Source: a virus
Virus record (IMG/VR): IMGVR_UViG_3300024264_000006
Coordinates: 83,637 to 147,636 of that record
Length of the DNA stretch: 64,000 bases
Reading direction: 5' to 3' (one strand)
In this document: positions 44,475 to 63,769 of the stretch, one piece after another
Position numbering within the stretch: position 1 is the stretch's first letter
How the letters are laid out: every line of letters begins with the position of its first letter
Made by a program: the position numbers and the translations under genes
Notes under the pieces: generated by a model
Databases searched by the model: none
What the model saw: only the letters and a program-made list of their open reading frames with translations
Told to the model about the DNA's origin: nothing

Positions 44475-45803
44475 TTATGTGAGGATGTTGTCCACACGGA
44501 AGATACGGTAGTACTGGTTAGACTTAGCAGATGCCAATCCATCAGCTGGAGTTGATCCAACAAATGGGTTAGAAGCCATGCCGTAACGAGTCTTGAAACC
44601 GATCTTAGGCTGGAAAGTGTCTTCCGAAACGGCTTTAACCATTTGCAGAGGAACGTAAGGACAGTAGAACAGACCAGCGTCATAAGGGTTAGTACCCTTG
44701 TAGCCGATTGTTACGTAATCTGTCTGTGCATACGGATCGATGTATACACGTAAACGTCCATTTAACACACCAGCGAAGGTGTTACCTGTGTCATCAACTT
44801 GCAAGTTGGTGTTCATAGCAGGAGTATAGTCCAACATACCAGAAGCAGCCAATGCAGTAGCAACGTCAGAAGAACAGATAACTACGTTACCTTTTCCACG
44901 TCTTGTTTCTTTTGCAATAACGTTTGCTTCACGATCAAGTTGTACAACCAGACCTTTGAACTTCTCAGCAGACCAACGACCATCAGCGTCACTAGAAAGG
45001 TCAAAAATACCGTTCTTAGTTACGTTTGCCTGAAGGGCACCTGTCTTAGCTTGAGAGTTAATAGTTCTGATAACTTCTCTGTTGATCTCAGCAAGAATCT
45101 CAGTAGACAAAATGTTTGCCAACTCAGTTTCAGCATCAAGACCGTGAATTGCTTTAAGGTCTTGAGCGAGTTCAAGAGAGTACTCAGCTTTCAGCGCACG
45201 AGACTTTGCAGTCACGGTTGCTTTCTCAATGGTGAATCCCATTTCTTCGAAAGTGCCAGAACCAGAAGAACCAAGTGCTTCTGCGTCAGCAGTAGACATT
45301 GGGCGACCAGTTAGGTTAGTACCACGCATGTCATTAGCAGAGTCACCAGAAGGTGCGATTCCGTTAAATCCAGATACGTTGTCACTATCGTGAGCAGCTG
45401 CGCCAGAAGAGTCACCACTGAAAGTAGTTTCTGCTTCGTTGAACAATGCTTCACGGTTAGATGTAGAACCACCACCATATCTTGCCTTCATAGCGAAGAT
45501 AAGACCAGTAGGGCCAGACATCGGTTGAACACCACATACATCGTATGCCATTAAGTTAGGCATTGCACGGCGTACAAGTGAGATTAAAATCGGATCCCAT
45601 GTACCGATAGCAGAAGTTGCGTTAGCAGGAGCTGCTTCAGTCATGAAACCTGAATGTTGTGCACGTTCTTCAGAAAGAGCACGTTCTTGGTTTTCTAAAA
45701 TGGCTGCAGTGACGGCCTTTCTGTGGTGATCAGTGATCGCACCAGCAGACTCTTCGTTCAATACAGGACTCCATTTTTCGATAAGATTATCGTAAGAATT
45801 CAT
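44475..45803 (-). CDS. gp23: Major capsid protein (gp23)
   Basis: GVQPMSGPTGLIFAM, SRALKAEYSLELAQDLKAIHGLDAE, FQPKIGFKTRYG. Confidence 0.98.
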   Translation of the reverse strand: MNSYDNLIEKWSPVLNEESAGAITDHHRKAVTAAILENQERALSEERAQHSGFMTEAAPANATSAIGTWDPILISLVRRAMPNLMAYDVCGVQPMSGPTGLIFAMKARYGGGSTSNREALFNEAETTFSGDSSGAAAHDSDNVSGFNGIAPSGDSANDMRGTNLTGRPMSTADAEALGSSGSGTFEEMGFTIEKATVTAKSRALKAEYSLELAQDLKAIHGLDAETELANILSTEILAEINREVIRTINSQAKTGALQANVTKNGIFDLSSDADGRWSAEKFKGLVVQLDREANVIAKETRRGKGNVVICSSDVATALAASGMLDYTPAMNTNLQVDDTGNTFAGVLNGRLRVYIDPYAQTDYVTIGYKGTNPYDAGLFYCPYVPLQMVKAVSEDTFQPKIGFKTRYGMASNPFVGSTPADGLASAKSNQYYRIFRVDNILT

Positions 45804-45814
45804 AATGGTTTTCC

Positions 45815-46870
45815 TTATTTATTAGCGGTTTGTCTAATAGTTTGGATGTACTGTTCCATTACAGAAGACACTTCGACAGTTGTCTCAGGTTCTTCAGCAG
45901 TAATTTCATCAGTTACATCAGTTTTTTCAGCCTTAAAGAAAGACTCACGGATTGTTTCGACCTTAGACTTAAACGACTCTTCGTCATCAAAATCTACGTT
46001 CTCAACCAAACCACGAAGTTTCTCTACTTGAGTTTCTGCCATACCACGTGCAGCTTCAATAATAATTGAATCACGCTTGTATGTTTCAAGTTCTTCGGCA
46101 AGTTTAATTGCGTCACCTGTTGTTGCGTTGAGTTTAGTTTCCAACTCTTCAACAGATTCAGCTAGTTCGTCAACTAGGTCAACTTTGGACTCAGGAACTT
46201 CAATGTAAGATTCTACAAAGACATCTTTCATTTTGTTCATGAACGTCTCAGCGATTTCAGTACGGAGACCGTTCTGAACTGCTAACTTGTTCTCTTCCAT
46301 CCAAGATTCAACTACATAGTTAAGGTAGCTATCTACTTTCTCTACAAGATCAGATTTAACTTCAGATACTTCTTCAGCTAATTGTTCTTGATACTGTGTT
46401 TCAATTCTGTCTACTTCTTCAGACAGTTTTGTTTTCACAGCTGCTTCAAAAATTATAGCAGTTTTGGCTTTAAACTCATCACTGAGTGTTGCCTCAGACT
46501 CTACCAGTGCGTCTATTTCAGCAGTAGTATCAATTTGTGTCTCAGCGACAACACTTGATTCTTCTACTTCCACTTCTTCGCCCATTACCTTACTGTACGA
46601 TGCTTGAAGGTCAGCTTTTTTCATGCTGTTCAATTTACCGTACATGGCACTGATCATACCTGCTTTTGTTTTTGGAACAGGAGCTTGTTTTGTTGCGCCT
46701 GCAGCTTTGTCCACACTTGCGATTGACTCAGGTTCAGTTACTTCACCTTCGTCGCCCTTCGGTGCTGACTTAACAGCAGGAGCTGTTTCGTCGAGAGTCT
46801 CTTCCACGATATCGTTAATATCTTCATCGTGGAGTTCGACAGCTTCGACTTCTTTATTGACATCAGTCAT
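45815..46870 (-). CDS. gp22: Prohead core scaffold (gp22)
   Basis: Acidic coiled coil, IFEAAV, YLNYVVESW; synteny. Confidence 0.9.
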   Translation of the reverse strand: MTDVNKEVEAVELHDEDINDIVEETLDETAPAVKSAPKGDEGEVTEPESIASVDKAAGATKQAPVPKTKAGMISAMYGKLNSMKKADLQASYSKVMGEEVEVEESSVVAETQIDTTAEIDALVESEATLSDEFKAKTAIIFEAAVKTKLSEEVDRIETQYQEQLAEEVSEVKSDLVEKVDSYLNYVVESWMEENKLAVQNGLRTEIAETFMNKMKDVFVESYIEVPESKVDLVDELAESVEELETKLNATTGDAIKLAEELETYKRDSIIIEAARGMAETQVEKLRGLVENVDFDDEESFKSKVETIRESFFKAEKTDVTDEITAEEPETTVEVSSVMEQYIQTIRQTANK

Positions 46871-46881
46871 AATCGACTCCT

Positions 46882-47541
46882 TTATAATTGCGATTTTATT
46901 AACGAGAGGAAATTTTTAAACTCTCGAATTTGCACTTCTGGACGAAATGCTTTCGGAGTAGTTTTAATTTCAGTCTCCATTTTCTCAATTACCTGAGGCT
47001 CTAAAATGCCGTTATTCCAGACCCAGTCTACACCTTCCATAATTCCATTAACGAAAGCTTCTGGTGCGCTAGGGTCTTGTACTATGTCAACAGTACTAAG
47101 AATAAAGTCGTCTTTAACGACCATGGCGCCATTTCGATTCTCAAGGCTACCCATACCACGAGTTGACACGCCTAGTTGAACACCGCCTTCTAGGAGACCT
47201 TTTACGATCTTACCCATTGGAGTATCCAATACTTGTGCCTTTCCTACCACATCATTTCCCTCAAACTTGAGGTCTGTGATGAGGTGTGAAACTTTGTCTA
47301 AGTTGACTGTCGGCCCTTCAGGGTGGTTTAGTTCCCCTACTGCCCGTCTCTTAGAAACTTGTTCTTGTACGTACTTACCTACCGCCCTTTCCATAATTGG
47401 TTTGGGGTAGATACGTCCGTTTCTGTTCTTTTTGTCGGCCTGTGCGAACACACCTTCAATGGTGTACTTCTTTTCACCATCTTCTTTTTTCTCTACGATG
47501 CATTGAACATCGTTTTCTAAGTATTCGCTTATCAGCTTCAT
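46882..47541 (-). CDS. gp21: Prohead protease (gp21)
   Basis: NRNGRIY, GELNHP, GVSTRGMGS, DPSAP. Confidence 0.96.
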   Translation of the reverse strand: MKLISEYLENDVQCIVEKKEDGEKKYTIEGVFAQADKKNRNGRIYPKPIMERAVGKYVQEQVSKRRAVGELNHPEGPTVNLDKVSHLITDLKFEGNDVVGKAQVLDTPMGKIVKGLLEGGVQLGVSTRGMGSLENRNGAMVVKDDFILSTVDIVQDPSAPEAFVNGIMEGVDWVWNNGILEPQVIEKMETEIKTTPKAFRPEVQIREFKNFLSLIKSQL

Positions 47542-47756
47542 CTTGCTAAATCCTTTAAAATAGCTTGTGCGCCTTTAACGGCGTCTTTTTCGGACTTGAA
47601 TGTGTCCAGCATATCTCCATCGACATATGCGGTATACCCCTTACTGTCTTTCCAGACTTCGTAAGGGATTTTCTTTCCACGGACTTTCTCTGTTCCGGAA
47701 TGAACCTTTTTCCCTTGAGGTTTTTTTGCCTCTCTGATTTGTTCAAACGTTTTCAA
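47538..47756 (-). CDS. Small prohead-region protein (gp68 position)
   Basis: TTG start with GGAG; late promoter upstream. Confidence 0.65.
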   Translation of the reverse strand: MKTFEQIREAKKPQGKKVHSGTEKVRGKKIPYEVWKDSKGYTAYVDGDMLDTFKSEKDAVKGAQAILKDLAR

Positions 47757-47781
47757 AGTAAGTTTTCTCCGTTGTACCTAT

Positions 47782-47789
47782 TATTTATA
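47782..47789 (-). promoter_or_regulatory. Late promoter TATAAATA
   Basis: Exact consensus; hairpin ATGAAGTC/GACTTCAT (47826-47846) just upstream. Confidence 0.8.
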
Positions 47790-47850
47790 CAATTTATGTT
47801 TTTAAAAACAAATGTTTGTGACTTTATGAAGTCTCCCCGACTTCATCATC

Positions 47851-48180
47851 CTATGAAACTTCTTCCACTTCGTCTTCAACCACATCTTCGGTTGTTTCAT
47901 CATCATCAATACCTTCCTCGTCGATCTCATCATCGACCATATTTTCTATTTCTTGGTCAGTGAGGTCTTCGTCTTCAATGTCGCCATCCGCATCATTAAA
48001 GATGGAACCAGCCACTGCCACTTTCTCTGCATCCAATCTGGCTTGCAGTTTGTCGTTCAACATAGAATTGAATGTGGTCTGTGCAGCATTATAATTCTGC
48101 TGTTGCAAAGCATCAATGAACTGTTGTGCTTGACCGATTTCTTCTTGTTGTTCGACTTCTTGATTTTCTACTTCACTCAT
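47851..48180 (-). CDS. Acidic prohead core protein (gp67-like)
   Basis: Highly acidic; directly after the portal gene. Confidence 0.7.
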   Translation of the reverse strand: MSEVENQEVEQQEEIGQAQQFIDALQQQNYNAAQTTFNSMLNDKLQARLDAEKVAVAGSIFNDADGDIEDEDLTDQEIENMVDDEIDEEGIDDDETTEDVVEDEVEEVS

Positions 48181-48182
48181 GA

Positions 48183-49694: not shown

Positions 49695-49717
49695 ATCTCG
49701 CTTCTTTTGATAAAGTG

Positions 49718-49751
49718 CGGGGGCTAATTGCCCCCGACTCTATTACTTATA
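49718..49751 (-). promoter_or_regulatory. Late-promoter variant TATAAGTA followed by a leader hairpin CGGGGGC/GCCCCCG
   Basis: Between gp19 and gp20. Confidence 0.55.
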
Positions 49752-49757
49752 CTAGTC

Positions 49758-50285: not shown

Positions 50286-50298
50286 CTTTCTCTACTCC

Positions 50299-52092
50299 TT
50301 AAACTGTGCCAACGACTTCTTCAAAGTCTACACCACTACGAACTGCGACAAAATTCAATGTCACGAAGTTAATAGAACGTGCAGGCTTAATGAAGATAGA
50401 AGCGACAAATTCGTTTCTGTCAATCACAGCCGGTGTGTTGTTTGTTTCATCACAAACAACCTTAAAGTCTGTAATACCTCTTCGACCCTTGATCTCACGA
50501 AGTAAAGGTTCTACAACATTCACAAACTCAGCACGAGTAAACTCGTCATTGAATTCGAAGAGAATGTTCTTAGCAGCTTGTGCGATTGACTTCTCAACAC
50601 CGATAAACAATCTTCGGACGTTGATTCTGTCAAATGCAGAAGGTCTAAGTTCATGAGTCTTGTCACCATACAATACAATACCTACGCCTGGGATATTAGC
50701 CACAGGGTTGACATTTGCTTTATATAGTGCGTCTCTCTGCGCTTTATTTGGAGAGTGTGCAATATCTGTTACTGCCAGATAGCTACCACGTCTCTGCCCA
50801 GCTGGAGAGAACCAAGGAGCAGCAACAAAGTCTGTTGCAGCCATGATTCCAGCAGTTGAGGAGTTAGCAGGAATATAAATGTATTGATCGTTATATTTAT
50901 CAAACACCTTGAGGTAGTTATTATCTACGATCAAGTATGAACTGTTTGATAGTGAATTTGCAAACGAAATGGCATTCGTATTTGCAGCACTGGTTGTTAC
51001 ACCAATGATTCCATCTCTGTTAGGAGAAACTGGAACCACACAGTCCTTGCGGTCTTTTGCAATTGCGTTACAATAGTTTGCGATTGTTACAGCGTCAGAG
51101 TCATTAGATGACTGAGGCGGAATCAGGAAGTCTACCTGAAGAGCTTCTGCGTCATCAAACAGATCGAATCCTGTTGTAACTTGACTATTAGTCAAATCAG
51201 CAGAGTTTGATCCACCGCCCAATTTAATTTGAGAGATGTCGTTTGTCCATGCAGATACGCCTGTAGAGTAATCTACTGCGCTGTCCACTGAAGGGGTCTT
51301 ACCCCAGTTTTGCCCGATATTTGCATGAGAAGAACCAAATGCAGAGTCATCTGCAAAGATGTTGTTCCATACATATCCCGATTGCGTGTTGATTACATCG
51401 GAAATATAGTTCGGAGAACCATCCGGTGTAACAGCACCTTTAGCAACAGACAGGTGAGGGAATGTTTCCAACACTGTGCCTGGCGTTCCAGTGAATGACC
51501 CAGTTCGGTCAATAACCGCTACGTGTACTTCGTCTTTAGATGCACCGTTTTCGGTTGCATAAGCAGAAGTAGTTGGTTCACGATCAAATGAACCTTTGTA
51601 TGACCAACCACCAAAAAAGTCGTTGCCATCGGAATCGCTTGCTGGACAGAATGCTACTGTCAATGCATTACCCAGTGAGCCTGGATATTTTGCAATGAAC
51701 GATCCTGTATTTAGCGTTCCCGCCTTGACAGAAGAAGAAACATTAGTTTCCCAATCTTGAAGGTTCTCAACGGTTGCTGAGTCGCTGGTTAGTTTTGTAA
51801 CAGCACTGTGTGCGTTAGTGCCTCCATTGTTACCACGAACAATGTAGAGGCTGTTTGTGTACTTCAAGAAGTACGATGCGCTATGGAAATCCACAGCATT
51901 ATCTTCGTTAGGCGCTGCGAACGCTCTCACCAGTCCAGATTCGTCTGCCACTAGTGTTTGCGAGTTTACAGGCCCCCAACGAAAGTTCCCAACAAATGCG
52001 CCTACAGAAGTCGATACATTGGGCGCTACACCCGAAAGATCGATTTCTCTGATCGTAATTGCTGGAGACAGAGACGGTGATAGTAATGCCAT
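50299..52092 (-). CDS. gp18: Tail sheath protein (gp18)
   Basis: PWFSPAG, FDRINVRRLF, IKPARSINF. Confidence 0.96.
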   Translation of the reverse strand: MALLSPSLSPAITIREIDLSGVAPNVSTSVGAFVGNFRWGPVNSQTLVADESGLVRAFAAPNEDNAVDFHSASYFLKYTNSLYIVRGNNGGTNAHSAVTKLTSDSATVENLQDWETNVSSSVKAGTLNTGSFIAKYPGSLGNALTVAFCPASDSDGNDFFGGWSYKGSFDREPTTSAYATENGASKDEVHVAVIDRTGSFTGTPGTVLETFPHLSVAKGAVTPDGSPNYISDVINTQSGYVWNNIFADDSAFGSSHANIGQNWGKTPSVDSAVDYSTGVSAWTNDISQIKLGGGSNSADLTNSQVTTGFDLFDDAEALQVDFLIPPQSSNDSDAVTIANYCNAIAKDRKDCVVPVSPNRDGIIGVTTSAANTNAISFANSLSNSSYLIVDNNYLKVFDKYNDQYIYIPANSSTAGIMAATDFVAAPWFSPAGQRRGSYLAVTDIAHSPNKAQRDALYKANVNPVANIPGVGIVLYGDKTHELRPSAFDRINVRRLFIGVEKSIAQAAKNILFEFNDEFTRAEFVNVVEPLLREIKGRRGITDFKVVCDETNNTPAVIDRNEFVASIFIKPARSINFVTLNFVAVRSGVDFEEVVGTV

Positions 52093-52157
52093 AACTGTTA
52101 TCCTTTTCGTTTACAAATTATAAGTGAGTTCATAATACGGTTTTTATCAATCAGTAT

Positions 52158-52165
52158 TATTTATA
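52158..52165 (-). promoter_or_regulatory. Late promoter TATAAATA for gp18
   Basis: Exact consensus. Confidence 0.8.
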
Positions 52166-52177
52166 ATTTTTAAGTTT

Positions 52178-53791: not shown

Positions 53792-54125
53792 CGTCTATCA
53801 CCTTAGCTTTTTCATTCTGTAGAAGTCGTTGTAAGTCGCTTGTTGATCCAAGAAATAAATTATTATTGGTTGTGTTCCCAAGTTTTTTGGGATCATCTTC
53901 ACGATCTATTTCTTTCTTTTGTTTATTCAGAGCCATGAGTTTGTCGTTGATGTCTGCCATGTTTTTCATCATACCAGACAATACTTCAAACGCACGAGGA
54001 TGTTCGCTTTCACGTGCTACCTCAATCATGAGTTCCATACTCTCTCTACCTTTTTCTAGTAGATCGTAGTATGTCTCTCTTGAGTATTGGTAATCATTAT
54101 CTACATTATCATTACGTTTTGTCAT
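53772..54125 (-). CDS. gp16: Terminase small subunit (gp16)
   Basis: HPRAFEV, NNNLFLGSTSDLQ. Confidence 0.9.
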   Translation of the reverse strand: MTKRNDNVDNDYQYSRETYYDLLEKGRESMELMIEVARESEHPRAFEVLSGMMKNMADINDKLMALNKQKKEIDREDDPKKLGNTTNNNLFLGSTSDLQRLLQNEKAKVIDVEPPPE

Positions 54126-54892
54126 GCACTGCTATCCAAATATTGAATCAAAAATCCATAGTCGCTGTCGGGACTCACTCCTACAGGCGTTGGAGTTATG
54201 TTTATGTTCGTATAGAACGTATCACTGTCTCCCATAATATATAGATTATTATTAACTTCACGTATAATGCCTTGTTCAACATTAGGCCCATAGAATGCAA
54301 TTTTCATTGTAAAATCAAGATTATATATAATGGTTCTTCTCTGTTCTAGTGCACCCTCAAAAGTATCTTCGAAAGAAACCCCTTCAAGTACTACAGGCAC
54401 ATCTTCTTTGACATCTGGGAGATCAGAGAATGGTTTTATCGTCACCGTATATTGTGGTGCGAAATACGGTATAATTTGTTCTACTATTTGTAACGCATCA
54501 TCCTGAGACTTTGCGTAAATACTTAATTGAAATGATACGTCATAAGGTACAGACGTAAACATTTTGTACCTTTTAGTAATGTCATTTTCAAATTCGTTTT
54601 GAACACGGTTTACTTTAGGTAATTGTCTTGCTGGGTCATAGGTCATCTGAGTAATTTCAAATGACATACGAGGAAGTTTCATCGCAACTTTACGTTCTGC
54701 TTCCTCTCCCTTTGACATCTCTGCCAGTCTTTGGATAAAGTTTCTCTTAGGCGCATAAGATAAAGGCACCTTTACCTGAGAAATAATCTCACCGCCAGCA
54801 TTTGCTCTGAGGACGTGCAAGTCGTTAAACAACGATCCGAATACAGATACCGCTGTTCTAACTCTCTTGTGATAAAAATGTGTTCCAAACAT
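54122..54892 (-). CDS. gp15: Tail terminator/sheath stabilizer (gp15)
   Basis: FGSLFND, VPLSYAPK, LPRMSFE, QIVEQIIPYF. Confidence 0.93.
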   Translation of the reverse strand: MFGTHFYHKRVRTAVSVFGSLFNDLHVLRANAGGEIISQVKVPLSYAPKRNFIQRLAEMSKGEEAERKVAMKLPRMSFEITQMTYDPARQLPKVNRVQNEFENDITKRYKMFTSVPYDVSFQLSIYAKSQDDALQIVEQIIPYFAPQYTVTIKPFSDLPDVKEDVPVVLEGVSFEDTFEGALEQRRTIIYNLDFTMKIAFYGPNVEQGIIREVNNNLYIMGDSDTFYTNINITPTPVGVSPDSDYGFLIQYLDSSA

Positions 54893-56601
54893 TATTCCAT
54901 GTCTCCAAAGGGATTAGATTCGGAGAAGTCTAGGAAGTCACCCTCAAAATCATCAAATATCGTGTTCTGAGATTCCTGTTGAATCTCTTGTAATTCTTCT
55001 ACCAGACTGGGAACCCAACTTGCATTCGCACCTGATATAGGACGATTAACATTGAACTGTCGGTATTCTCCATCTGTAGAACCACAGTGAGCCAATTGAA
55101 GAACTCTATCAGAGTCACTCCAGTCTGTAACCTCACCCTTCATAGTATATGTAGAGTTTACTTGAGATACTACTTCCCCAATAATAAAGTTACCACCCGA
55201 ATCTGGGGCAGAGAATATTGGAGATGGTGCATTTGAATACAAGAATCCTGACGTAACTAATGTTAGTCCGGTTACACTACCTGTTGTTGCATCAATCGTA
55301 GCAGTAGCAGTAGCTGGTGTTCCGTCCGCATGTTCTAGTGTTATTGTATTAGAACCACTATCGTTCACTGAGGTTGGTACTGTAAAGTCTGAGTCTCCTA
55401 CTAGAGTACTTACACTACCAGCTCGGAAATGAATCTCATCTAGGTTACCCGCAGTAACTTTCCAGTCTGTACCACCGAAGGTTCTACTAGAAAATGCACC
55501 CAACGAGTATCCTGAAGACGTTGCAAATGGATCAGTATAACCAATAGCAGAGTCCATTTCCTTTGTACCATTTACCCACACATGAACATCACCTGAATCT
55601 AAAGCAAACGCAATATGTTCAAATGAACCACGAGTAAGAGTAGAAGTACTTGCAACTCTAGGGGTTGCCATTCCACTTCCCCTTTGGTATACTAATGCAC
55701 CAGATGAGTTTATACCCCACATGGTTTGATTGCCGGCACTATCACCACCGTGTAACAATATAGAAGAGAATTCTCCAGCAGATGGATACTCACTAACACG
55801 GATAAACATGTCTACCACACCGTTATCGGATGGAAACAAGAAAGAGTCTTCTACGCCCAGAGCCTGTGACATGTCGATACTGTTCCTACCAAAATAAGAT
55901 ATGTCACCTGAATCGGGTTGTGGGAAGGTTACCGTTGGCGCAGTTGTATAACCACGTCCAGCTGTAGACAGAGATATGGTGTCCACACCACCGGCTTGGT
56001 TGATTGTTGAACCAGCAGTAGGTAAACTACCAAAACTATCTCTTGTTCTCATAGTAAGTTTATACTGGAAGGCACCTTCGTACTCAATATCGTCTATGGT
56101 ATCAATACCAGTATCAAAGTCTTCATCGTTGTATTCGAACAATTCAGCTTGTAGTCTAAACGTAGGCAGATTACTTAGTTGATAGAATGGCGTCTCAGTT
56201 TCTACTTTGTTAATTTGGAAGATAGATTTGGAGAGAGACAGATAAATGACATCGCCTTCTCTTGGTCGAAACTTGTTTGAATCTAAGTAGTTACCGATAA
56301 GTTGTTTCCAACGTTTACGAGCAACTACGAATGTGGCTTGATCTCTTAGTTCAATACCAAATTTTGTGAACAGGTCACCCTCACCTTCGAATCCTTCAGT
56401 GTTCTCAATGTACATCTCTATTTTGTAGGCGTCAGAGAAACGTGAGGGTACATCATCAAGGAATACTTTATCCTTGTTGACTATTTCTCTTGGTATGTAG
56501 TAAACGTCCTGACCGTAGAACTTTAAAGACTCAATTACGATGTCTTCATAAAGGTTTTGTTCCGATCTGACTGTTTGACTGATATATGGATTTGTTGCCA
56601 C
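54892..56601 (-). CDS. gp14: Neck protein gp14 with a large inserted lectin-like domain
   Basis: gp14 N-terminus (YGQDVYYIPR, KFGIELRD, RPREGD) and C-terminus (DFSESNPFG) flanking an insert of about 300 aa. Confidence 0.88.
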   Translation of the reverse strand: MATNPYISQTVRSEQNLYEDIVIESLKFYGQDVYYIPREIVNKDKVFLDDVPSRFSDAYKIEMYIENTEGFEGEGDLFTKFGIELRDQATFVVARKRWKQLIGNYLDSNKFRPREGDVIYLSLSKSIFQINKVETETPFYQLSNLPTFRLQAELFEYNDEDFDTGIDTIDDIEYEGAFQYKLTMRTRDSFGSLPTAGSTINQAGGVDTISLSTAGRGYTTAPTVTFPQPDSGDISYFGRNSIDMSQALGVEDSFLFPSDNGVVDMFIRVSEYPSAGEFSSILLHGGDSAGNQTMWGINSSGALVYQRGSGMATPRVASTSTLTRGSFEHIAFALDSGDVHVWVNGTKEMDSAIGYTDPFATSSGYSLGAFSSRTFGGTDWKVTAGNLDEIHFRAGSVSTLVGDSDFTVPTSVNDSGSNTITLEHADGTPATATATIDATTGSVTGLTLVTSGFLYSNAPSPIFSAPDSGGNFIIGEVVSQVNSTYTMKGEVTDWSDSDRVLQLAHCGSTDGEYRQFNVNRPISGANASWVPSLVEELQEIQQESQNTIFDDFEGDFLDFSESNPFGDME

Positions 56602-56607
56602 GTCTTA

Positions 56608-57384: not shown

Positions 57385-57396
57385 TATACTGTCCTA

Positions 57397-60276
57397 TTAG
57401 TTTTGTAGTGTTCCACTAGCATCGTATACGTTGATTCTATAGTAAGCTCCGTGTTGTCCGTCAAGTAAGTCGGCATCCAATCCTGAAGTTGCTCCGTCCA
57501 CTGTCTTAATCGCAGTTAAGAGTTCAGCAGCAGTTGAGTATGTTTCACTGAATGAGAATGCACCTGTTCCTGAGTTGTAACCTAAGTCACCGGATGCACT
57601 GAACATTCCTTTAACGTTTGCAGAGTCAAGGTTGAATTCTCCATTAGTAACAGAAAGTCCCTTGTTTGCAGTTAAGTGTGCTCTTACTTCAGCAGCACTA
57701 GGCCCTGTATAGGTAATAACACCTGTTGAACTATTGTATGATGCACTTCCATCTCCACCCGCATCGGTTACCGATATAGCACCTCTTGCACGTGCAGTGG
57801 TATGATAGAGGTTAGACCCTTCTGGTAGATCATCCGTCTTGAGATGATTGATACCATCACTATCAATAACAGTTGTTAATGCGACTGCGCCTGTTCCATC
57901 AAAAGAAACGGCACTTGCAGTCACATCACCTGTTAAGGAGAAGTTTTGACTACTTGCAAGAGCAGTTGCAGTGTCAGCGTTACCTGTTACCGCACCAGTT
58001 ACATTACCGTAGAAGTTTGCTGCTTGAACGTTTGCGTTTGTAAGTGTCAAGTCACCAGTTGATGCACCTGTAGCAGTTGTAGTTGCAAATACTACTCTGT
58101 CTATACTTTCATCCCAACCCATGAACACATTGTCACCAGTTGTTCCTCTTTCGAGAACAAGACCAAGGTCATTAGCGTTTGCACCTGAGTTGCCTGAACC
58201 AAGTTCAATCAACGCATCTTCGATTGTTGTGTTGGTTGCACTGTTAGTTACAGTACTACCATTGACAGTCAAATTGCCTGTGATTACTACGTTACCACTC
58301 GCATCAACATCTGCGAACTGTACGTTGTCAGAAGTTCCTACTGCTTGACCAATACTGATTGCACCGTCATTATACGTTACACCAGTACCACCACTAAACA
58401 GACCTTTAATCTGTGTCGCAGTTCTATCTGAATCAGTGTAAGAGAATACGCCATCCGAATATGATAGGTCGCCACCCGCACTAAACATTCCCTTGACATT
58501 TGCAGAGTCAATATTAAACTCACCATTAGAAACGGAGAGTCCTTTGTTTGCGGTTAAATGCGCTCTTACTTCAGCAGCACTAGGCCCTGTAAATGTAAAT
58601 CTGCCTGTTCCAGAATCATATGAGAGCGAACCATCTCCACCAACATCGGATAGACCAATTGCATTTCTTGCTCTTGCGTCTGTATAGTAAAGATTTGTAT
58701 TTTCTGTTAAGTCGGCTGTGGTGAAAGGGTCGAGTGATATGACATCCGTAAAGTTTCCACCAGTTGTTTGTATTGTAATAGTTGCGTCTGAACTATCAAA
58801 GTCAACCCCTGTAACACCCGCAATAGTAATGTTCTTTGCAGAGTCGATTTGACCCTGTGCATTTACTGAGAACTGTGGTACTTGTGTAGAAGAACCGAAT
58901 GTTCCCGCACTGACCCCAGAATTAGTAATGCTGATCGCACCACTACTCAAGGTTATACCAGTGCTACCACTAAAGTGTGCTCTTGCTTCTGCAGCAGAAG
59001 GCCCTGTGTATGAGAATCTACCGGAAGCAGAGTCATATGTCAGAGACCCGTCACCACCCTGATCATGAAGACCAATGGCATTACGTGCACGTGTATCTGT
59101 GTAATAGAGGTTGGATGACCCTTCACTCAAATCGTCGGTTGAACCTGAGTCAATCGCAACGTTAAAGTCGGAATCAAAGTTTGCTTTAGTGTAGACTTGT
59201 TCTACATCAAATGAGAATACACCAGTAGAAGAATCGTAAGATAGATCACCTGTTGCACTAAACATTCTACGTACATTTTCTGAGTCAATATTAAACTCAC
59301 CACTACCAGTATCATAACTGAGACCTTTGTTACCTGATACGGCCGCTCTCGCTCTAGCATCGGTATAATACTGATTTGTCCCTTCAGATAAGTCGGATGT
59401 AGATTTTTGACTTAAGTCTAAATTAGCACCAACTTGTAATGCGATTCTAGCATCAGCTCTTGCATTTGTATAATACTGATTTGACCCTTCAGATAAGTCG
59501 GTGGTAGTATACGGGTCTAGCGTGATTGTGTCGAGGAATGTTTGACCATCAGCAGTATTGATTGTGAAGTTACCGTTGGAAGAATCGAAGTTGATGCTTG
59601 AAACACCAGCTACACTTACTGTACCAATACTATCGATTTGTCCTTGTGCATTGACAGTGAATACGGGAACGAGAGACGCACTGCCATATGTACCGGCTGT
59701 TACCCCAGTATTTGTTATAGAGATAGTACCACTAGCACTATCATAAGTAAGACCTGTACCTTGAACCATTGAAGCTCTGGCACGTGCTTCGGTAAAGTAT
59801 TTGTTTATGCCTTCTGTTAAATCAGTAGTAGTTGAGGATGATTCGTCTAATAGTTTGTGCCATGCACCACCATGTGCAAAGTAACCTTTGCCTGTTCCGT
59901 GTACGTGTGCGAACATACCATGATAAGATGAAGCATTTGGTAGGTCGCTGTCCGAACTGTAGACGTTAGCAAAGAGAACCTTATTACCACCCATATCAAG
60001 GTCTTGACGTGTGACATCCGAATCAACACGTGCAGTGGTATAATACTGCCTCGTACCTTCAGCGATATTGGTTGTCGTAAGGTCTTGACTATCACCCAGC
60101 GAAACAGTCAAATCGTTTATAGTGATTCCACTGTGAGCCAACATTGCATTTGCGATGACGGGTAACGATGCTGAATCGATACTACCGTCAGAACCGGCAA
60201 GTTGTGATCTGTCGTCTTTTACGAAACCAGATGTTGTCAACAGACTTGACAGAAATCTAGCTTTTGATTGTGCCAT
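57397..60276 (-). CDS. Repetitive tail-fibre/whisker-like virion protein
   Basis: Repeated DL(S/T)EG.NxYYT.ARAR and GGDGS..Y..TG...TGPSAAE units; LDADLLDG C-terminus. Confidence 0.75.
57680..58591. repeat. Intragenic direct repeats in the fibre gene
   Basis: 30 bp identical at 57680-57709 and 58562-58591; 33/34 bp match at 59363-59396 and 59468-59501. Confidence 0.8.
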
Positions 60277-60323
60277 TAGACGTTCCCTTTTATTCCTCGT
60301 TTCATGCTAAGCATGTTCTCTCT

Positions 60324-60331
60324 TATTTATA
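60324..60331 (-). promoter_or_regulatory. Late promoter TATAAATA
   Basis: Exact consensus upstream of the 959-aa gene. Confidence 0.8.
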
Positions 60332-60335
60332 AGTT

Positions 60336-61700
60336 TTAATCTATGAAGTATGTACCTGTTACAAGAATTCTTCCTGATCCATTGTCGGCCATTCCAACGT
60401 TAGCATAATTTCCTGCTCCGTCTTCGGTCTGAACCAATAGTGTTGAAGAATTTTTCTCTAATCTGGTCAACAAAGTATCATAATCAGTATAAGTTAGTTG
60501 TCCATTTGTTGATGCTGGGAAAACATATTCCAATCCAGTCTCATTCATAGACGCAAAAGGCAATCCAGATACTCTCAAATTACCCGTTCCTGTGTGTGTA
60601 CTCCATACCAGTTGTAAAGAAAAGGTAATCATGTTACCCATTCTAGTATAGAACCCAATCTGAGAACTATAGTTCCCTGTCCCTGCTGAACTTGATCCAA
60701 CAACAACAGGAGTAAATTGTTGTTTTTGTGTGTACTCCTTGATGAGATAATCACTAGAAGTACCGCCAATGTAAATACCTGCCGTTACCTTCACATCTTC
60801 ATACGAAGGACGTTGTGAAGATTGTTCAAAGGCCTGAATCTCTACCCTGTCGGAAGAGTCCAGTGCAGTTGTAAAGTTTACATTCTCACCGTCAATGGCA
60901 CTATAGTCCGTATCTGGACTCATCAAAACACCATTGTTAAATACCTTAAGTGCACCAACTTTATAATCTAAAGTGTTGCCATCTGAGTCATTACCTGTTA
61001 TAGTAGAGACTCCACCATTACCCACAAAGGAATAATGATAATCTTTATATGATTGACTTGTGCTTAAGAAGTCTGGAAGTGCGATGACCTGTAGTAGATC
61101 GTTTACAGCCGCCGGTATCGTAAGTACAATTGTCGTACCATTTGTTGCAGTATAGTCAAGCTTGGGGTCTAGGATAACACCGTTAAGATATACCTCTACT
61201 TTTCCTGTAGCATATCTTAAAGTACGGTTATTGTTATCTAGTCCAATAAACGTGGTCTGTGCTGCCGTTGCAGTGTAGTTGTATTCTGCAACCTGAAGAC
61301 CTTGTGTAAAACTTTGAACCTGAAGGATGTCACCGGAATTTGCTCCAGTGTTTAATGTGATCGTAGTCCCGTCATTTGACACAAAGTCATTTGCGGAGTC
61401 TAAAAGTACTCCGTTCATATAGACATTAACAAGACTAGGGATATACCCTAGAATGTCGCTATCTAAATCTGCTCCGGTAAATACCGTCTGGTTGCTATCT
61501 GCTGAGAAATAAAATTCCTCATAAGTAGCACCAGTCTGTTCACCAATCTCAACAATTGATTCAGTACCATTAACACTCTTCTTGATGAACATAAGTCCAT
61601 CGTAAGTGTTGATCGCAACTTCACCAAGATCAAGTTGGCCAATAGTCGGTATCTTTCCGGCTACAGAACTACGTTTAAGCCGAAATTTTGTTGTTGACAT
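60336..61700 (-). CDS. Virion structural/fibre protein with three tandem beta domains
   Basis: LKRSSVAGKIP...GEVAIN N-terminus; three V(Y/F)xNGV(L/I)-type units. Confidence 0.7.
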   Translation of the reverse strand: MSTTKFRLKRSSVAGKIPTIGQLDLGEVAINTYDGLMFIKKSVNGTESIVEIGEQTGATYEEFYFSADSNQTVFTGADLDSDILGYIPSLVNVYMNGVLLDSANDFVSNDGTTITLNTGANSGDILQVQSFTQGLQVAEYNYTATAAQTTFIGLDNNNRTLRYATGKVEVYLNGVILDPKLDYTATNGTTIVLTIPAAVNDLLQVIALPDFLSTSQSYKDYHYSFVGNGGVSTITGNDSDGNTLDYKVGALKVFNNGVLMSPDTDYSAIDGENVNFTTALDSSDRVEIQAFEQSSQRPSYEDVKVTAGIYIGGTSSDYLIKEYTQKQQFTPVVVGSSSAGTGNYSSQIGFYTRMGNMITFSLQLVWSTHTGTGNLRVSGLPFASMNETGLEYVFPASTNGQLTYTDYDTLLTRLEKNSSTLLVQTEDGAGNYANVGMADNGSGRILVTGTYFID

Positions 61701-61759
61701 TTGTCATCCCCAAGTCCAATATTGGAATTACACAACCCTTATATAAGGGAAACTTACTT

Positions 61760-63769
61760 TTAGTAAGTACCTCCGTCCATTTGATAAATAGTTACCGCAC
61801 CACTTGTTACAGTAAATTGATCAGAGTCGAAGGAAGCTACGCCTGGATTACTCTTTGTAGCAAGTTCTGCTGCGATGAGTAATTCATTTGTGTTGTCTGT
61901 ATAGGTTAAATCTATACCTTCTCCAGCGGTCAGAAGGTTTGCAACTTCACTATCAACTAATTGTTCGAATGCGACACCGTTGATAGTTAAAGAACCAGCT
62001 TCTACATTTGCTGAAGATGTTATTGCGCCCGTTACATCGAGCGGTTTGTTTATTGTCCACTTGTCACCAGTTGCGGAATACGAGAACGTTGCACTTGCAC
62101 CGTTTACAGTAAGACCCGCACCATCAGCCTCAGCTGCGTTGGTGGCACTATCTGCGAGGACAATATTTAAATCGTTAATTGACAACTCAGTTGAGTTGAT
62201 GGTTGTTGTAGTGCCTTGGACGGTTAAGTTGCCAAGGATATAAAGGTCACCAGAATCTCCAACAGGATTTGGATCAATATACAAGATTCCATTTGTATCC
62301 GTATTACTGATCGTGTTTCCGGTTAATCTTAAGTTACCTACTTCTACCTGAGTAAGACCAGCGATAGTACTAGAAGAATCTCCTAGAGATACTGTGGTAC
62401 TACCAAACTTGACTGTACTATTGGTTAGTTGTCCATTGCCAACCGCATTGGCTTTAATGGTGACATCACCACTAGTAACATCAAAGTCTGCACTATTAAA
62501 TGATGCGACACCTTTGTTGCTGGTAGATGCGTCTTCACCTTTAACAGTAATGACAGCACCTGTGTGATTTACATCAATGCCCTCACCACCAAGAAGAGAA
62601 ACAGAATGACCTGAAGGTGTTACAGCACCATCGTCTGTAGTTACTCCCTTGAGAACTACATCCGCTAAACTAACATTGCCGTTTGAGGCAACGAAGTCGG
62701 TATTATCAAACTGAGCCACACCCTTCTGGTTTGAATCAGCATTCTCAATTGTTGCGGTAATTGTATCTGTAGAAGCAGAGAAAGAAATTCCTCTGTTAGA
62801 TGTACCCAATAAGTTAATACCATGAGCACTAGGGTCAACCGTTCCGGTGTCTGTTGTAACAGTCTTGATAACATTATCATCAAGAGTTACTACACCAGAT
62901 GCAACACCAAAGTCATTCGCATCAAACTGAGCGGCACCTTTTGATGAAGTAGATGCGTCTACCAATCCATATGTGAATGAGTTAGTAGAAGAATCTTGTG
63001 TTAGGGTTAAGTTACCACTGGCCGCTAATGTTACATCTGAATCAAGAAGACTTATTGCATCTCCATTGATTGTAAGATTAGTTGCAACGGGTACTGTTCC
63101 AGCACTGTCTAGTTGACCTTGTGCGTTTACTGTGAATACTGGGATTGCAGTTTGCGACCCGTAAGTTCCAGTTGTTACACCTGTTGCATCAACAGAATAT
63201 GTTATAGTGTCGTTTGTTACATTTGAAGTAAGACCAGTTCCACCCGCAAAGGTTAGTACACCTGATACAGATGAGAATGAGTCTGAGTCTGCCTGATCGT
63301 CTGCGATAGAGAAACTAACGTTAGATATCTGAGCGTCTACATAGGCTTTGTTCGCAGCATCACTATCATCGACGGGAGCAATGAGATTGATTAATCTATT
63401 ACCATTTACGTCAATATGAGATGTTGGTGCGAAAACAAGATTGCCTGTGGTCGTAGAAATATTATTGCCATTGAAGTCAATGTTGTCTACAATAAGGTGG
63501 TCTAGTTTAGAATTCGAATCTGCAATTAATGCTGTGTTTGCTGTAAGGACACCGAATGGGGCGTTTCCGGTTCCTCCAAGAAGATCGACGTAATACTTAC
63601 CACCGATAACTTCATGGTTAGCAGCATCGCCAGCTGTCTCTGTACCAGTACCAACATATAGTCGATCACCACCGGCACCATTGAAATACGAATACGCAAA
63701 CTCACCTTGAGCAAGCGTAGTGGGATTGCCCGTAGTCCCACTTCGTTTTATTCTAATTATTGATGCCAT
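61760..63769 (-). CDS. Tail-fibre-like virion protein
   Basis: IRIKRS N-terminus, DAANKAYVD, repeated KG(V/A)A.F units, DGGTY end. Confidence 0.75.
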   Translation of the reverse strand: MASIIRIKRSGTTGNPTTLAQGEFAYSYFNGAGGDRLYVGTGTETAGDAANHEVIGGKYYVDLLGGTGNAPFGVLTANTALIADSNSKLDHLIVDNIDFNGNNISTTTGNLVFAPTSHIDVNGNRLINLIAPVDDSDAANKAYVDAQISNVSFSIADDQADSDSFSSVSGVLTFAGGTGLTSNVTNDTITYSVDATGVTTGTYGSQTAIPVFTVNAQGQLDSAGTVPVATNLTINGDAISLLDSDVTLAASGNLTLTQDSSTNSFTYGLVDASTSSKGAAQFDANDFGVASGVVTLDDNVIKTVTTDTGTVDPSAHGINLLGTSNRGISFSASTDTITATIENADSNQKGVAQFDNTDFVASNGNVSLADVVLKGVTTDDGAVTPSGHSVSLLGGEGIDVNHTGAVITVKGEDASTSNKGVASFNSADFDVTSGDVTIKANAVGNGQLTNSTVKFGSTTVSLGDSSSTIAGLTQVEVGNLRLTGNTISNTDTNGILYIDPNPVGDSGDLYILGNLTVQGTTTTINSTELSINDLNIVLADSATNAAEADGAGLTVNGASATFSYSATGDKWTINKPLDVTGAITSSANVEAGSLTINGVAFEQLVDSEVANLLTAGEGIDLTYTDNTNELLIAAELATKSNPGVASFDSDQFTVTSGAVTIYQMDGGTY

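Follow-up and report, generated by a model that had tools for sequence, protein, structure and literature searches.

A putative Asp-Ser-(Ala/Asp) sequon for serine O-glycosylation on the outward-facing virion proteins of a marine T4-like phage

The general O-glycosylation system of the Bacteroidota uses the sequon D-(S/T)-(A/I/L/V/M/T), and Maf-type flagellin O-glycosyltransferases are cytoplasmic enzymes that modify Ser/Thr on the exposed parts of a self-assembling filament protein; we know of no strict sequon in flagellin glycosylation. Mycobacteriophage virions are reportedly glycosylated by phage-encoded glycosyltransferases and, to our knowledge, no strict tripeptide sequon has been described for them. 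This virion glycosylation is referred to in passages of PMC12582341 and PMC11256854. In staphylococci, SdgB and SdgA O-GlcNAcylate the serine-aspartate repeat adhesins (PMC3794999, PMC8561734), and the Bacteroidota O-glycosylation system is discussed in PMC8698959. The glycosyltransferases of pelagimyophages and cyanomyophages, with GT8 as the commonest family and UDP-glucose 6-dehydrogenase also present, have been read as modifiers of the host O-chain that block co-infection, with no mention of a virion tag (Zaragoza-Solas et al. 2020, PMC7029224).

Here we describe a window of 64,000 nucleotides from the 147.6-kb genome of an uncultured marine T4-like myovirus, in which outward-facing virion proteins carry Asp-Ser-(Ala/Asp) at four to five times chance level.

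Asp-Ser-(Ala/Asp) on the outward-facing virion proteins

The tagged virion genes in the window are as follows.
44475..45803, minus strand: gp23 major capsid protein, 442 aa (homology to annotated major head proteins)
45336..45413, minus strand: variable surface loop of gp23 with all three capsid sites, SGDSSG..HDSDN..SGDSAN (alignment)
50299..52092, minus strand: gp18 tail sheath, 597 aa (DS count)
54122..54892, minus strand: gp15 tail sheath stabiliser, 256 aa (Pfam T4-gp15_tss, E 2e-67)
54892..56601, minus strand: gp14 neck protein with an extra part (Pfam T4_neck-protein at residues 4-173, Laminin_G_3 at 258-391)
57397..60276, minus strand: 959-aa tail fibre (PHROG tail fibre and structural protein matches)
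60336..61700, minus strand: 454-aa tail fibre protein (PHROG tail fibre matches)
61760..63769, minus strand: 669-aa fibre or structural protein (DS counts and protein-family search)

According to the original prediction, the dipeptide DS is concentrated in these proteins. Its counts (19 in the 959-aa fibre, 13 in the 669-aa protein, 5 in the 454-aa protein, 11 in gp14, 5 in gp18 and 3 each in gp15 and gp23; 59 in sum), the 48 DS[ADGS] among them, the locations given inside gp14, gp15, gp18 and gp23 and the control count of 11 DS in 4,284 aa (gp13, gp17, gp19, gp20, gp21, gp22, gp41, gp43, gp46 and UvsX) were all recovered on recount. The three DS[ADGS] of gp23 are at residues 131, 139 and 154, and the five DS[AD] of gp18 at residues 104, 153, 249, 270 and 331 (nt 51094-51783), with none in its conserved C-terminal part; all three sites of gp15 fall in the final 35 residues, the C-terminal tail ..YLDSSA among them. 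After its neck domain gp14 has an extra part of ~390 residues (about 180-569) that includes the Laminin_G_3-like region, and 10 of its 11 DS are at residue 188 or later; in the phages C48C1 and HTVC008M gp14 is only ~290 aa long. DS[ADGS] occurs 16 times against 4.4 expected in the 959-aa fibre, in which YDS[AS]xG hairpin-like repeats are present, 4 times against 0.9 in the 454-aa protein and 9 times against 2.4 in the 669-aa protein.

Since D and S abound in the fibres, some sites lie within internal repeats and the motif was picked after the sequence had been inspected, an artefact of composition, repeats or motif selection could be suspected. When residues were shuffled within each of the seven proteins, however, 31.2±5.0 DS and 11.8±3.3 DS[ADGS] were expected, and none of 3,000 shuffles was as high as the observed 48. 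DS ranked first of 228 dipeptides in the tagged proteins, and DS[ADGS] led the XY[ADGS] classes with z=10.5, the runner-up having z=3.0. The 86 virion sites found genome-wide still made up 77 clusters once similar contexts had been merged, with ~20 expected, so that neither composition nor repeats account for the excess. In a blind ranking of the 193 ORFs of the genome by DS[ADGS] excess, 12 of the top 13 were virion proteins, namely the seven above together with the gp8-like, gp9/10-like, 794-aa, 1910-aa and LtfC-like proteins. When 4,520 tripeptides were ranked blind across all ORFs of the late modules, two tetrad-repeat proteins being left out, DSD came first (36 against 7.7 expected, over 14 proteins) and DSA second (33 against 7.1, over 12 proteins), both with z of about 10 and the next tripeptide at z 6; the motif is therefore not a post-hoc pick. 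About 20 further related contigs show the same motif. The shuffles and blind scans refute an artefact, which is left with practically no probability. Codon usage at the motif is the same as background, which places the signal at the protein level. The scarcity of DS in non-virion proteins was also recovered but is not specific evidence, since their DS[AD] observed/expected ratio (O/E) of 0.40 here compares with 0.49 in the weakly tagged C48C1 and, in part, with 0.76 in the untagged HTVC008M.

To define the motif, 359 non-redundant sites were taken from tagged relatives (14 contigs). Position +1 after DS is enriched in A (4.0x) and D (3.3x) and depleted in I/L/V/T/Y/F/E/K/R/Q, with I/L/V/M/T at 0.1-0.2x. 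The proposed definition DS[A/D/G/S] thus holds for A and D, whereas G and S are at background level only. In the same contigs the O/E is 4.8 for DS, 0.49 for DT[ADGS], 0.57 for ES, 1.26 for NS and 1.06 for SD. Hydrophobic residues in the flanks alternate as in a strand-turn-strand, and the core is a strict Φ-D-S-[A/D], with no enrichment of DT, ES or NS. An analogy with the Bacteroidota D-(S/T)-x sequon, drawn at the outset, fails on these figures, as Thr is not accepted, the favoured +1 residues differ and that system is periplasmic.

The concentration on outward-facing parts was borne out after correction for composition and repeats. In the capsid, sheath, neck, outer baseplate and fibres the sites occupy loops, tips of hairpins, starts of helices and C-terminal tails, the tails being those of gp15, the gp9/10-like protein, a 346-aa protein and a gp5-like protein; further sites are in giant-fibre repeats that, by sequence alone, look helical. 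Buried parts lack sites, with a single one in total across gp6, gp25, gp53, gp48, the hub proteins, gp19, gp20, gp21, gp22, gp13, gp16, gp17 and gp3. On a structure model of the gp8-like protein all nine DS are in coil (coil being 49% of the model): three at hairpin tips, one at a helix N-terminus and the others in long loops. Such surface placement, with selection on site number and turnover of sites, would also suit a non-covalent tag that binds a decoration or assembly protein, seawater divalent cations or a host surface component, or that resists marine proteases, and its acidic and hydroxyl groups are potential chelators of Ca2+ or Mg2+. We regard this as highly improbable: the motif is absent from relatives that share this seawater, the analysis yielded no candidate partner for binding, Ala is about as frequent as Asp at +1 and DxDxDG-type periodicity is absent. 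Ca2+ binding, raised as an alternative in the original prediction, is further disfavoured by the strict Ser at position 2.

Distribution among relatives and accompanying genes

The O/E of DS[AD] in structural proteins is 4.5 in G000 and 1.9 in C48C1; the cultured relatives HTVC008M (0.90), Mosig (0.73) and S-SM2 (0.69) have no motif excess in these proteins (0.7-0.9). In alignments of tagged orthologues the motif serine is more conserved than other serines (0.76 v 0.56; 0.66 v 0.49; 0.61 v 0.38; 0.56 v 0.35), and in weakly tagged orthologues it is less so (0.13 v 0.33; 0.10 v 0.46), so that it outconserves other serines in tagged lineages only. Sites are still being gained and lost: between G000 and G057, 19 are common, 25 are private to one and 36 to the other. 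Orthologues of gp23 have 2-4 sites in tagged lineages and 1 in untagged ones, and those of gp18 have 3-6 in tagged loci and 0-2 in untagged. At the positions of the gp23 loop the alignment gives DG, DR or KPAD in untagged relatives and, in some tagged lineages, additional inserted stretches with DS; in gp15, DSD and DS[AS] stand where untagged relatives show DGD, DPD, QNN or DND. In gp23, gp18, gp15 and gp8, which are vertically inherited core proteins, sites were gained by substitution and not by module exchange.

Genes that might serve a modification of these sites are found both in the window and outside it.
7226..8808, minus strand: two paralogous DUF6071/GDSL-like ORFs, 250 and 277 aa (atlas neighbours)
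15393..16433, minus strand: UDP-glucose/GDP-mannose dehydrogenase-like (Pfam UDPG_MGDP_dh central and N-terminal domains)
16414..17454, minus strand: NAD-dependent epimerase/dehydratase (Pfam Epimerase, E 7e-42)
genome 46.2-62.7 kb, outside the window, strand not given: glycan island, ~16 kb (family searches)

Of the enzymes originally listed for the window, only these two sugar-nucleotide genes, the DUF6071/GDSL-like pair and 2OG oxygenases were confirmed there; the GT25-like and sulfotransferase-like genes of that list belong instead to the island (genome 46-63 kb), and no family search gave a cytidylyltransferase in the window. The dehydrogenase-like gene could possibly supply a sugar nucleotide and the epimerase/dehydratase, also present in G001, G004 and C48C1, could possibly tailor one. 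Both occur in the weakly tagged C48C1 and are therefore not sufficient for tagging. The DUF6071/GDSL-like ORFs, with a homologue in C48C1, have no Pfam or PHROG match, and DUF6071 or Lipase_GDSL is found in a minority of the members of their atlas neighbours. A 489-aa ORF at 9237-10706 is AMP-binding-like by atlas search, as a lead only.

The island holds three GT8-like and two GT25-like glycosyltransferases together with sulfotransferase-like, two methyltransferase, carbamoyltransferase, cupin, GATase-like and radical-SAM/SPASM genes; no enzyme like SdgA/B was found in it. Its 261-aa GT8-like gene has no match in any of 50,697 deposited phage records, and the protein model (pLDDT 90.5) has a retaining GT-A fold closest to UGGT, LARGE1, XXYLT1 and the chlorovirus capsid-glycosylating A64R. 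Beside the island is a 209-aa orphan gene, c209, found in every examined tagged lineage whose record spans that part of the genome and, among the 50,697 deposited records, in C48C1 only, which is also the only one of four deposited phages tested to have DS-rich fibres. Its motifs (GNG...CN...CGH...YGFD) presumably recall sialyltransferase or Maf-type enzymes, although c209 has no Pfam or PDB match, profile searches included, and hence no detectable family, and PF01973 has no match in the whole genome at E<=1. This distribution and these motifs make c209 a candidate initiating enzyme.

Serine modification of another kind, by phosphorylation (a Zeta-toxin-like P-loop kinase gene lies at genome 45242-46117), sulfation, or acylation and de-acylation through the DUF6071/GDSL-like and AMP-binding-like products, would fit the motif evidence for a trans-acting reader equally well, and sulfotransferase-like, AMP-binding-like and GDSL-like genes do exist in the genome. 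G003, G001, G002 and G056 share the kinase-like gene, conserved at 65-89%, and C48C1 and HTVC008M lack it, but the complete tagged genome G057 has just a weak 25% match and contig G018 none, and the substrates known for Zeta-type kinases are sugar nucleotides rather than proteins. The strongly tagged G002 lacks the sulfotransferase, methyltransferases, cupin and GATase-like genes, and glycosyltransferases are the densest conserved enzyme set. We therefore consider another modification improbable.

In the records compared, heavy tagging goes with the island and any tagging with c209. Sixteen contigs are known to have the island, and in 15 of these a DS index computed on the 25 kb downstream of gp6 falls within 3.3-7.4; in six island-less relatives (five clade B contigs and HTVC008M) it falls within 0.2-3.5. 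In a gp6 tree, however, the island-negative contigs form one clade with untagged phages as the outgroup, so the association of genes with tag is confounded by descent and rests on one or two independent, clade-level contrasts. G018 is an exception: it has GT8L, both GT25-like genes, the small GT8-like, sulfotransferase-like and methyltransferase genes and c209, yet its DS index is only 1.7 and its gp8-like, gp9/10-like and gp7-like proteins have no sites. G053 deviates also, with GT8L missing from its slot and yet several DS-rich fibres. Contigs without GT8L have one giant fibre with 19-33 DS[AD] in regular repeats (..RIxxDS[AD]Lxx..) that look helical, as judged from sequence alone.

G018 and these giant fibres bear on the main rival, a purely structural motif with no covalent change, which would be a turn former, a cap at helix N-termini or, in trimeric fibres, a polar or ion-binding layer, native to certain fibre repeat modules and spread by module shuffling and lineage-specific preference. 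D-S-D-G is a near-ideal type-I turn and D-S-[A/D]-Φ can act as a helix cap, which may make the signal partly structural; the coil, tip and helix-start positions in the gp8-like model, the strand-turn-strand flanks, the classic turn residues of untagged relatives (DGD, DPD, DND), the giant helical-looking fibres and the few sites of the enzyme-bearing G018 all agree with it. A turn or cap should, however, accept Thr, Asn and Glu, whereas DT and ES fall below expectation and NS stays close to 1. A single tripeptide is used at hairpins, at the starts of helices, in long loops, in a capsid loop and in flexible C-terminal tails; HTVC008M, Mosig and S-SM2 build their fibres and baseplates on the T4-like plan with no excess, and the core proteins gained their sites by substitution. 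On balance a structural motif seems unlikely, though it is the rival to be taken most seriously.

The putative sequon and its counterparts in described systems

Since the motif is strict, occurs in several structural contexts, keeps its Ser only in tagged lineages and is missing from related phages without the glycan genes, the best explanation at hand is a linear tag that is read in trans. The originally proposed address tag for a cytoplasmic phage-encoded modifier survives in this form, with the qualification that the association is at clade level. We tentatively propose, with a probability of roughly 0.45, that DS[A/D] is a putative sequon for phage-encoded serine O-glycosylation of virions. 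We infer that the serine is modified at all and that the modification is a sugar, which a cytoplasmic system of the phage would put, late in infection, on D-S-[A/D], mostly after a hydrophobic residue, in exposed loops and C-terminal tails, at the tips of hairpins and at the starts of helices. The candidate c209 would start the glycan and the GT-A enzymes of the island would lengthen it, giving a particle whose glycan coat may shield or tune the virion surface. It is likely that the tag arose first in one giant fibre, which would be the state of clade B and C48C1, and that in the island-bearing clade point changes and loop insertions later carried it to the capsid, sheath, neck and baseplate.

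Like the mycobacteriophages, this phage has its own glycosyltransferase and methyltransferase genes and the proposed targets are structural proteins made in the cytoplasm, several with sites in C-terminal tails. Mycobacteriophages, however, are siphoviruses of actinobacteria with other enzyme families and a proven modification, whereas the modification here is a prediction from sequence. The D-S-D serine that SdgB and SdgA glycosylate is modified by soluble enzymes before the protein reaches the surface, where the sugar protects it, and the tag here likewise includes D-S-D; in staphylococci, GT-B (GT4) enzymes act on a long tandem SD repeat, whereas the sites here are isolated and Ala serves as well as Asp at +1. 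With the Bacteroidota the system shares a three-residue sequon with Asp first, a hydroxyl second and Ala allowed third, on many unrelated surface proteins, but DT (0.49) and I/L/V/M/T at +1 are depleted here and Asp is favoured, and virions assemble in the cytoplasm whereas the Bacteroidota system acts on exported proteins. The N-terminal GNG of c209, followed by CN, CGH and YGFD, may recall the fold class of Maf and Cst-II-like sialyltransferases, and its distribution fits the tag, although it differs from Maf-type enzymes in having just 209 aa. The published host O-chain reading of such glycosyltransferases counts against a virion coat; the phages and genes are of the same kinds, but in the present data these genes vary together with a motif of the virion.

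Asp-Ser excess in the virion proteins

The virus record is 147,636 bp long and represents a T4-like marine myovirus; the window is its right-hand 43%. The nearest deposited relative of this virus is C48C1 (Kyanoviridae; 77% nucleotide identity over gp21-gp23), followed by cyanomyophages and pelagimyophages. The late genes lie in one region of the window:

44475-63769, minus strand: late-gene region with gp23, gp22, gp21, gp20, gp19, gp18, gp17, gp16, gp15, gp14 (long), gp13 and three fibre proteins

The Asp-Ser (DS) counts behind the original prediction of a tag on the virion were all reproduced exactly. The excess survived shuffling within each protein, with 59 DS against 31.2 ± 5.0 and 48 DS[ADGS] against 11.8 ± 3.3, values that none of the 3,000 shuffles reached. 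It also survived the collapse of repeats, since the 86 genome-wide sites fell into 77 context clusters where about 20 were expected. DS was the top dipeptide in the tagged proteins and ranked 391st of 396 among the window's 62 remaining ORFs, and DS[ADGS] had a z of 10.5 compared with 3.0 for the runner-up class in the same proteins. When all ORFs of the genome were ranked blindly by DS[ADGS] excess, 12 of the top 13 were virion proteins, and those outside the window included a gp8-like protein, a gp9/10-like protein, a 794-aa fibre and a 1910-aa VrlC-like protein. When 4,520 tripeptides were scored blindly across the late modules, DSD led (36 against 7.7 expected, 14 proteins) and DSA was the runner-up (33 against 7.1, 12 proteins). 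Repeats or composition as the cause are thus ruled out by the shuffles, the context clustering and the tripeptide scan. The motif could also have reflected GAYTC, a form of the GANTC methylation site, but its Asp and Ser codons are used in the proportions found elsewhere in those genes, and serine is encoded by AGY as often as expected; since motif codons follow background usage, the tag is not a DNA motif. Depletion of DS in non-virion proteins might have indicated avoidance of a sequon, but C48C1 shows the same depletion, which is therefore not specific.

The sole non-virion ORF among the top 13 encodes a 124-aa protein (window 4500-4874, minus strand) in a late operon of 'exported proteins', with three DS and two DS[ADGS] against 0.1 expected. 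Late-gene tripeptide scans are dominated by two tetrad-repeat fibre-like proteins outside the window (genome 2775-6209 and 6244-8700; locus L001), in which GNY, YSR and TRT reach z values of 13-25 and DS sites are confined to the N-terminal non-repeat parts.

The anatomy of the motif was taken from 359 non-redundant sites in 57 proteins on 14 contigs of tagged relatives, where DS[ADGS] had an observed/expected ratio (O/E) of 4.8. Directly after the serine, Ala (4.0-fold, 117 sites) and Asp (3.3-fold, 95 sites) were enriched, Ser and Gly were at background, and I, L, V, T, Y, F, E, K, R and Q were strongly depleted; Gly was twofold enriched one position further on, and the position before Asp was hydrophobic. 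There was no enrichment of DT[ADGS] (64 against 131.6 expected, O/E 0.49), ES (0.57), NS (1.26) or SD (1.06). Since these related pairs are unenriched, the core of the motif is a strict D-S-[A/D]. Calcium binding, which had been offered as an alternative, is disfavoured: the second position is strictly Ser, the next is Ala at least as often as Asp, and no acidic periodicity follows, so that the alternating acidic or amide ligands and variable second position of DxDxDG or EF-hand-like sites are not found.

The predicted outward-facing placement was borne out when sites were sorted by position in the particle. Tagged proteins comprise gp23, gp18, gp15, gp14, the gp8-like, gp9/10-like and VrlC-like proteins, a 346-aa protein and the fibres, and a single site was found across gp6, gp25, gp53, gp48, the hub proteins, gp19, gp20, gp21, gp22, gp13, gp16, gp17 and gp3. 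The sites of gp23 occupy one variable loop, those of gp18 only residues 104-331, those of gp15 the last 35 residues and those of gp14 the extra part beyond its neck domain. Several lie in extreme C-terminal tails (gp15, 253/256; gp9/10-like, 327/334; 346-aa protein, 327 and 339; gp5-like, 502 and 508 of 512). AlphaFold modelling of the gp8-like protein (pLDDT 77.7) put every one of its nine DS in coil, a state covering 49% of the model, with three on β-hairpin tips, one at a helix N-terminus and the others in long loops. Such loop positions would suit a structural turn or cap motif, which we regard as the main rival reading though an unlikely one; the exclusion of Thr, Asn and Glu argues against it. 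The long gp14 (window 54892-56601, minus strand) has 569 aa compared with about 290 aa in C48C1 and HTVC008M, and its extra part holds a Laminin_G_3/concanavalin-like domain, which would place a lectin-like fold at the neck.

Lineage distribution and site turnover

Across 80 IMG/VR loci around gp15, DS[ADGS] O/E ranged from 0.4 to 5.9 and tracked relatedness. For DS[AD] in structural proteins, O/E was 4.5 in this genome, 1.9 in C48C1, 0.90 in HTVC008M, 0.73 in Mosig and 0.69 in S-SM2, and a DS excess was seen in no virion protein of the last three, which are cultured relatives. The existence of untagged relatives also speaks against a purely structural motif. Where vertically inherited proteins are aligned, positions that hold DSD or DS[AS] in tagged lineages hold DGD, DPD, DND, DR or DG in the others, and some tagged lineages carry additional DS-bearing insertions in the gp23 loop. 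Compared with the remaining serines of the same proteins, motif serines were better conserved in tagged orthologues (0.76 v 0.56; 0.66 v 0.49; 0.61 v 0.38; 0.56 v 0.35) and less conserved in weakly tagged ones (0.13 v 0.33; 0.10 v 0.46). Sites also turned over: comparison with the complete genome of one relative (G057) gave 19 common sites, 25 in one genome alone and 36 in the other alone.

Relatives that lack the glycan island described below are not tag-free, each having one giant fibre that bears the same strict motif (observed against expected: 33 against 3.9 in G048, 19 against 3.8 in G049, 22 against 4.5 in G053 and 15 against 3.2 in C48C1), with DT[AD] at 1-2 against 4-5 expected. The sites fall in regular repeats that look helical by sequence alone, a feature that favours the structural reading. 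The fibre of G048 (IMGVR_UViG_3300017911_000967, contig 64154-69664) has 1836 aa and 33 DS[AD], one per 15-40 residues, within helical-looking repeats of the form ..RIxxDS[AD]Lxx..; elsewhere on that contig, the virion proteins examined have none or one apiece.

The glycan island and the candidate enzymes

The original prediction had listed candidate modifying enzymes in the window. A UDP-Glc/GDP-Man dehydrogenase-like gene, an epimerase/dehydratase, two DUF6071/GDSL-like paralogues and 2OG oxygenases are indeed there, together with an AMP-binding-like gene (an atlas lead only), but the GT25-like and sulfotransferase-like genes lie outside:

Genome 46.2-62.7 kb: glycan island with three GT8-like, two GT25-like, sulfotransferase-like, two methyltransferase, cupin, GATase-like, radical-SAM/SPASM, carbamoyltransferase-homologue and HAD/NT5C-like genes, and unnamed 209-aa and 299-aa genes (c209 and p299)
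Genome 48.3-62.7 kb: the glycosyltransferases, GT8-like of 218, 261 and 283 aa and GT25-like of 227 and 330 aa
Genome 46283-46912: c209, 209 aa, flanking the island

In Pfam scans of the island ORFs, GT8-like and GT25-like were the only glycosyltransferase families found, p299 and c209 being without family, and searches of PDB sequences with the GT8-like and GT25-like proteins gave one weak GT25 match. The 261-aa GT8-like protein (GT8L) has the predicted fold of a retaining GT-A enzyme, nearest to UGGT, LARGE1, XXYLT1 and the chlorovirus capsid-glycosylating A64R.

For the comparison across relatives suggested at the outset, a uniform tag index was used, the DS[AD] O/E of the 25-kb stretch that follows gp6 downstream. 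Of 16 contigs in which the island is known to be present, 15 had values of 3.3-7.4, among them two complete genomes ending in terminal repeats, and six island-less relatives (five contigs of one clade and HTVC008M) had values of 0.2-3.5. This comparison is confounded by descent: since the gp6 tree groups the island-negative contigs in a single clade, with the untagged pelagiphages as outgroup, it amounts to one or two independent contrasts. The exception, G018, is nested among strongly tagged phages and keeps its glycosyltransferases, yet has no site in its gp8-like, gp9/10-like and gp7-like proteins, which again favours the structural reading. GT8L occurs in nearly all strongly tagged contigs and in no deposited phage; it is not a strict marker of tagging, being contradicted by G018, and by G053, which is tagged although its slot lacks GT8L. 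G004 and G061 (3300034374_001920 and 3300006868_000018) have identical gp6 proteins from different samples and are probably overlapping fragments of one phage, which, when joined, would connect a strongly tagged structural module with the island.

Several single enzymes were rejected. The dehydrogenase and epimerase are not sufficient for tagging, since C48C1, whose island slot is about 2 kb with one unrelated glycosyltransferase, carries both. The sulfotransferase, methyltransferases, cupin, GATase-like and AMP-binding enzymes are not required, as the strongly tagged G002 lacks them all. A DruA/Mom-like gene correlated perfectly with tagging among the first few contigs only, and was discarded as the modifier since it occurs in untagged HTVC008M and many cyanophages. 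This DruA/DUF4338-like gene (window 41402-42532, plus strand; 376 aa) is inserted near gp23, has a homologue labelled 'methylcarbamoylase mom' in one cyanophage record, and looks mobile, being scattered in cyanophages and HTVC008M, often beside clamp-loader or HNH genes. A 356-aa ORF on the opposite strand to the late genes (window 42614-43684, plus strand) gave no Pfam or PHROG match and no homologue among the related contigs and genomes compared.

Two further genes were noted. A 291-aa Zeta-toxin-like P-loop kinase outside the window (genome 45242-46117; L003:5242-6117) is 65-89% conserved in G003, G001, G002 and G056 and has no counterpart in C48C1 or HTVC008M. Beside the island of two IMG/VR relatives (L138:9968-10660 and L148:13003-13692) is a 230-aa protein whose C-terminal part resembles, by eye, glycerophosphodiester phosphodiesterase (HRGN...PENT motifs) and which opens at its N-terminus with a 60-residue stretch of four to five (x)DSDG repeats, with eight DS[ADGS] against 0.5 expected.

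The orphan gene c209 has a distribution that suits a reader of the tag: it was present in every island-bearing contig examined for it and in the island-negative clade; among deposited phages it was found in C48C1 only, and it is absent from HTVC008M. Its invariant GNG, CN, CGH and YGFD motifs recall, as we take it, sialyltransferase/Maf-type enzymes, and we infer that c209 may be such an enzyme and a candidate reader of the tag. The PF01973 model (Maf, MptE-like/DUF115), run against all six frames of the genome, gave no match at E ≤ 1, control genomes being matched; c209 and p299 had no match in Pfam or PDB, as single sequences or as profiles; and ten distant c209 relatives from a profile search of 1.8 billion proteins belonged to no Pfam family. 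A search of IMG/VR for distant c209-bearing phage families supplied no independent replicate, since the best 80 loci were all close relatives.

A putative sequon and its relation to known systems

Since the tripeptide is strict and exposed in varied structural settings, its serine is conserved only in tagged lineages, its sites are renewed elsewhere and it is missing from similar phages without the gene set, the most satisfactory account of the DS tag is that its serine is read in trans. Serine O-glycosylation is the most likely chemistry, albeit putative (probability about 0.45), since four to five glycosyltransferases and sugar-nucleotide and glycan-tailoring enzymes are conserved alongside the tag. 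Some other modification of the serine seems improbable, and non-covalent recognition of the tag more improbable again.

With a little more reserve, we tentatively propose that D-S-[A/D] is an undescribed O-glycosylation sequon, which would be read in the cytoplasm by the phage-encoded orphan-family enzyme c209. The GT8- and GT25-like enzymes would then extend the sugar to a methylated, sulfated and carbamoylated glycan coating the capsid, sheath, neck, baseplate and fibres in a widespread clade of uncultured marine T4-like phages. Marine phage glycosyltransferases of this kind have been published as modifiers of host O-chains (PMC7029224). Under this proposal such pelagimyophage-like genes would act on the virion and not, as previously supposed, on host LPS.

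Our search of the literature for a DS sequon on phage particles found no paper describing one. If it is a sequon, bacteriophage particles would, to our knowledge, have their first glycosylation signal defined by sequence, virion glycosylation would reach beyond mycobacteriophages to very abundant ocean phages, and many glycosyltransferase "auxiliary" genes of marine myoviruses would gain a new role. DS[A/D] density would be a simple sequence predictor of coated virion surfaces, the coat would affect how the phage recognizes its host and how stable the particle is, as well as grazing and aggregation in seawater, and the short portable tag with its compact enzyme set could be of use in glyco-engineering. 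If it is structural only, it is still an unusually strict, lineage-specific turn or cap motif that deserves a structural explanation.

The analogy first drawn, with the Bacteroidota O-glycosylation sequon D-(S/T)-(A/I/L/V/M/T), fails at two of three positions and probably in the cellular compartment. The Asp directly before the hydroxyl residue is common to both. The Bacteroidota sequon accepts Ser or Thr, whereas the DS tag excludes Thr, and of the Bacteroidota third residues the tag fits Ala only (I, L, V and T being at 0.1-0.2 times expectation) and adds Asp. Bacteroidota substrates are exported and glycosylated in the periplasm, which is unlikely to hold here, T4-type virion proteins being both synthesized and assembled in the cytoplasm. 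Staphylococcal SD-repeat glycosylation and the virion glycosylation of mycobacteriophages are nearer in their working. The substrate of SdgA/SdgB is, however, long tandem Ser-Asp repeats, whereas DS sites are isolated and DSDS doublets rare, and DSDS tandems are not its substrate. SdgA/SdgB are GT4 enzymes (GT-B); the Pfam scans of the island gave GT8-like and GT25-like genes, with p299 and c209 matching no family. The mycobacteriophage type relies on phage-borne glycosyltransferase genes, a feature that this virus shares in its genes. The DS system belongs to neither of these two.
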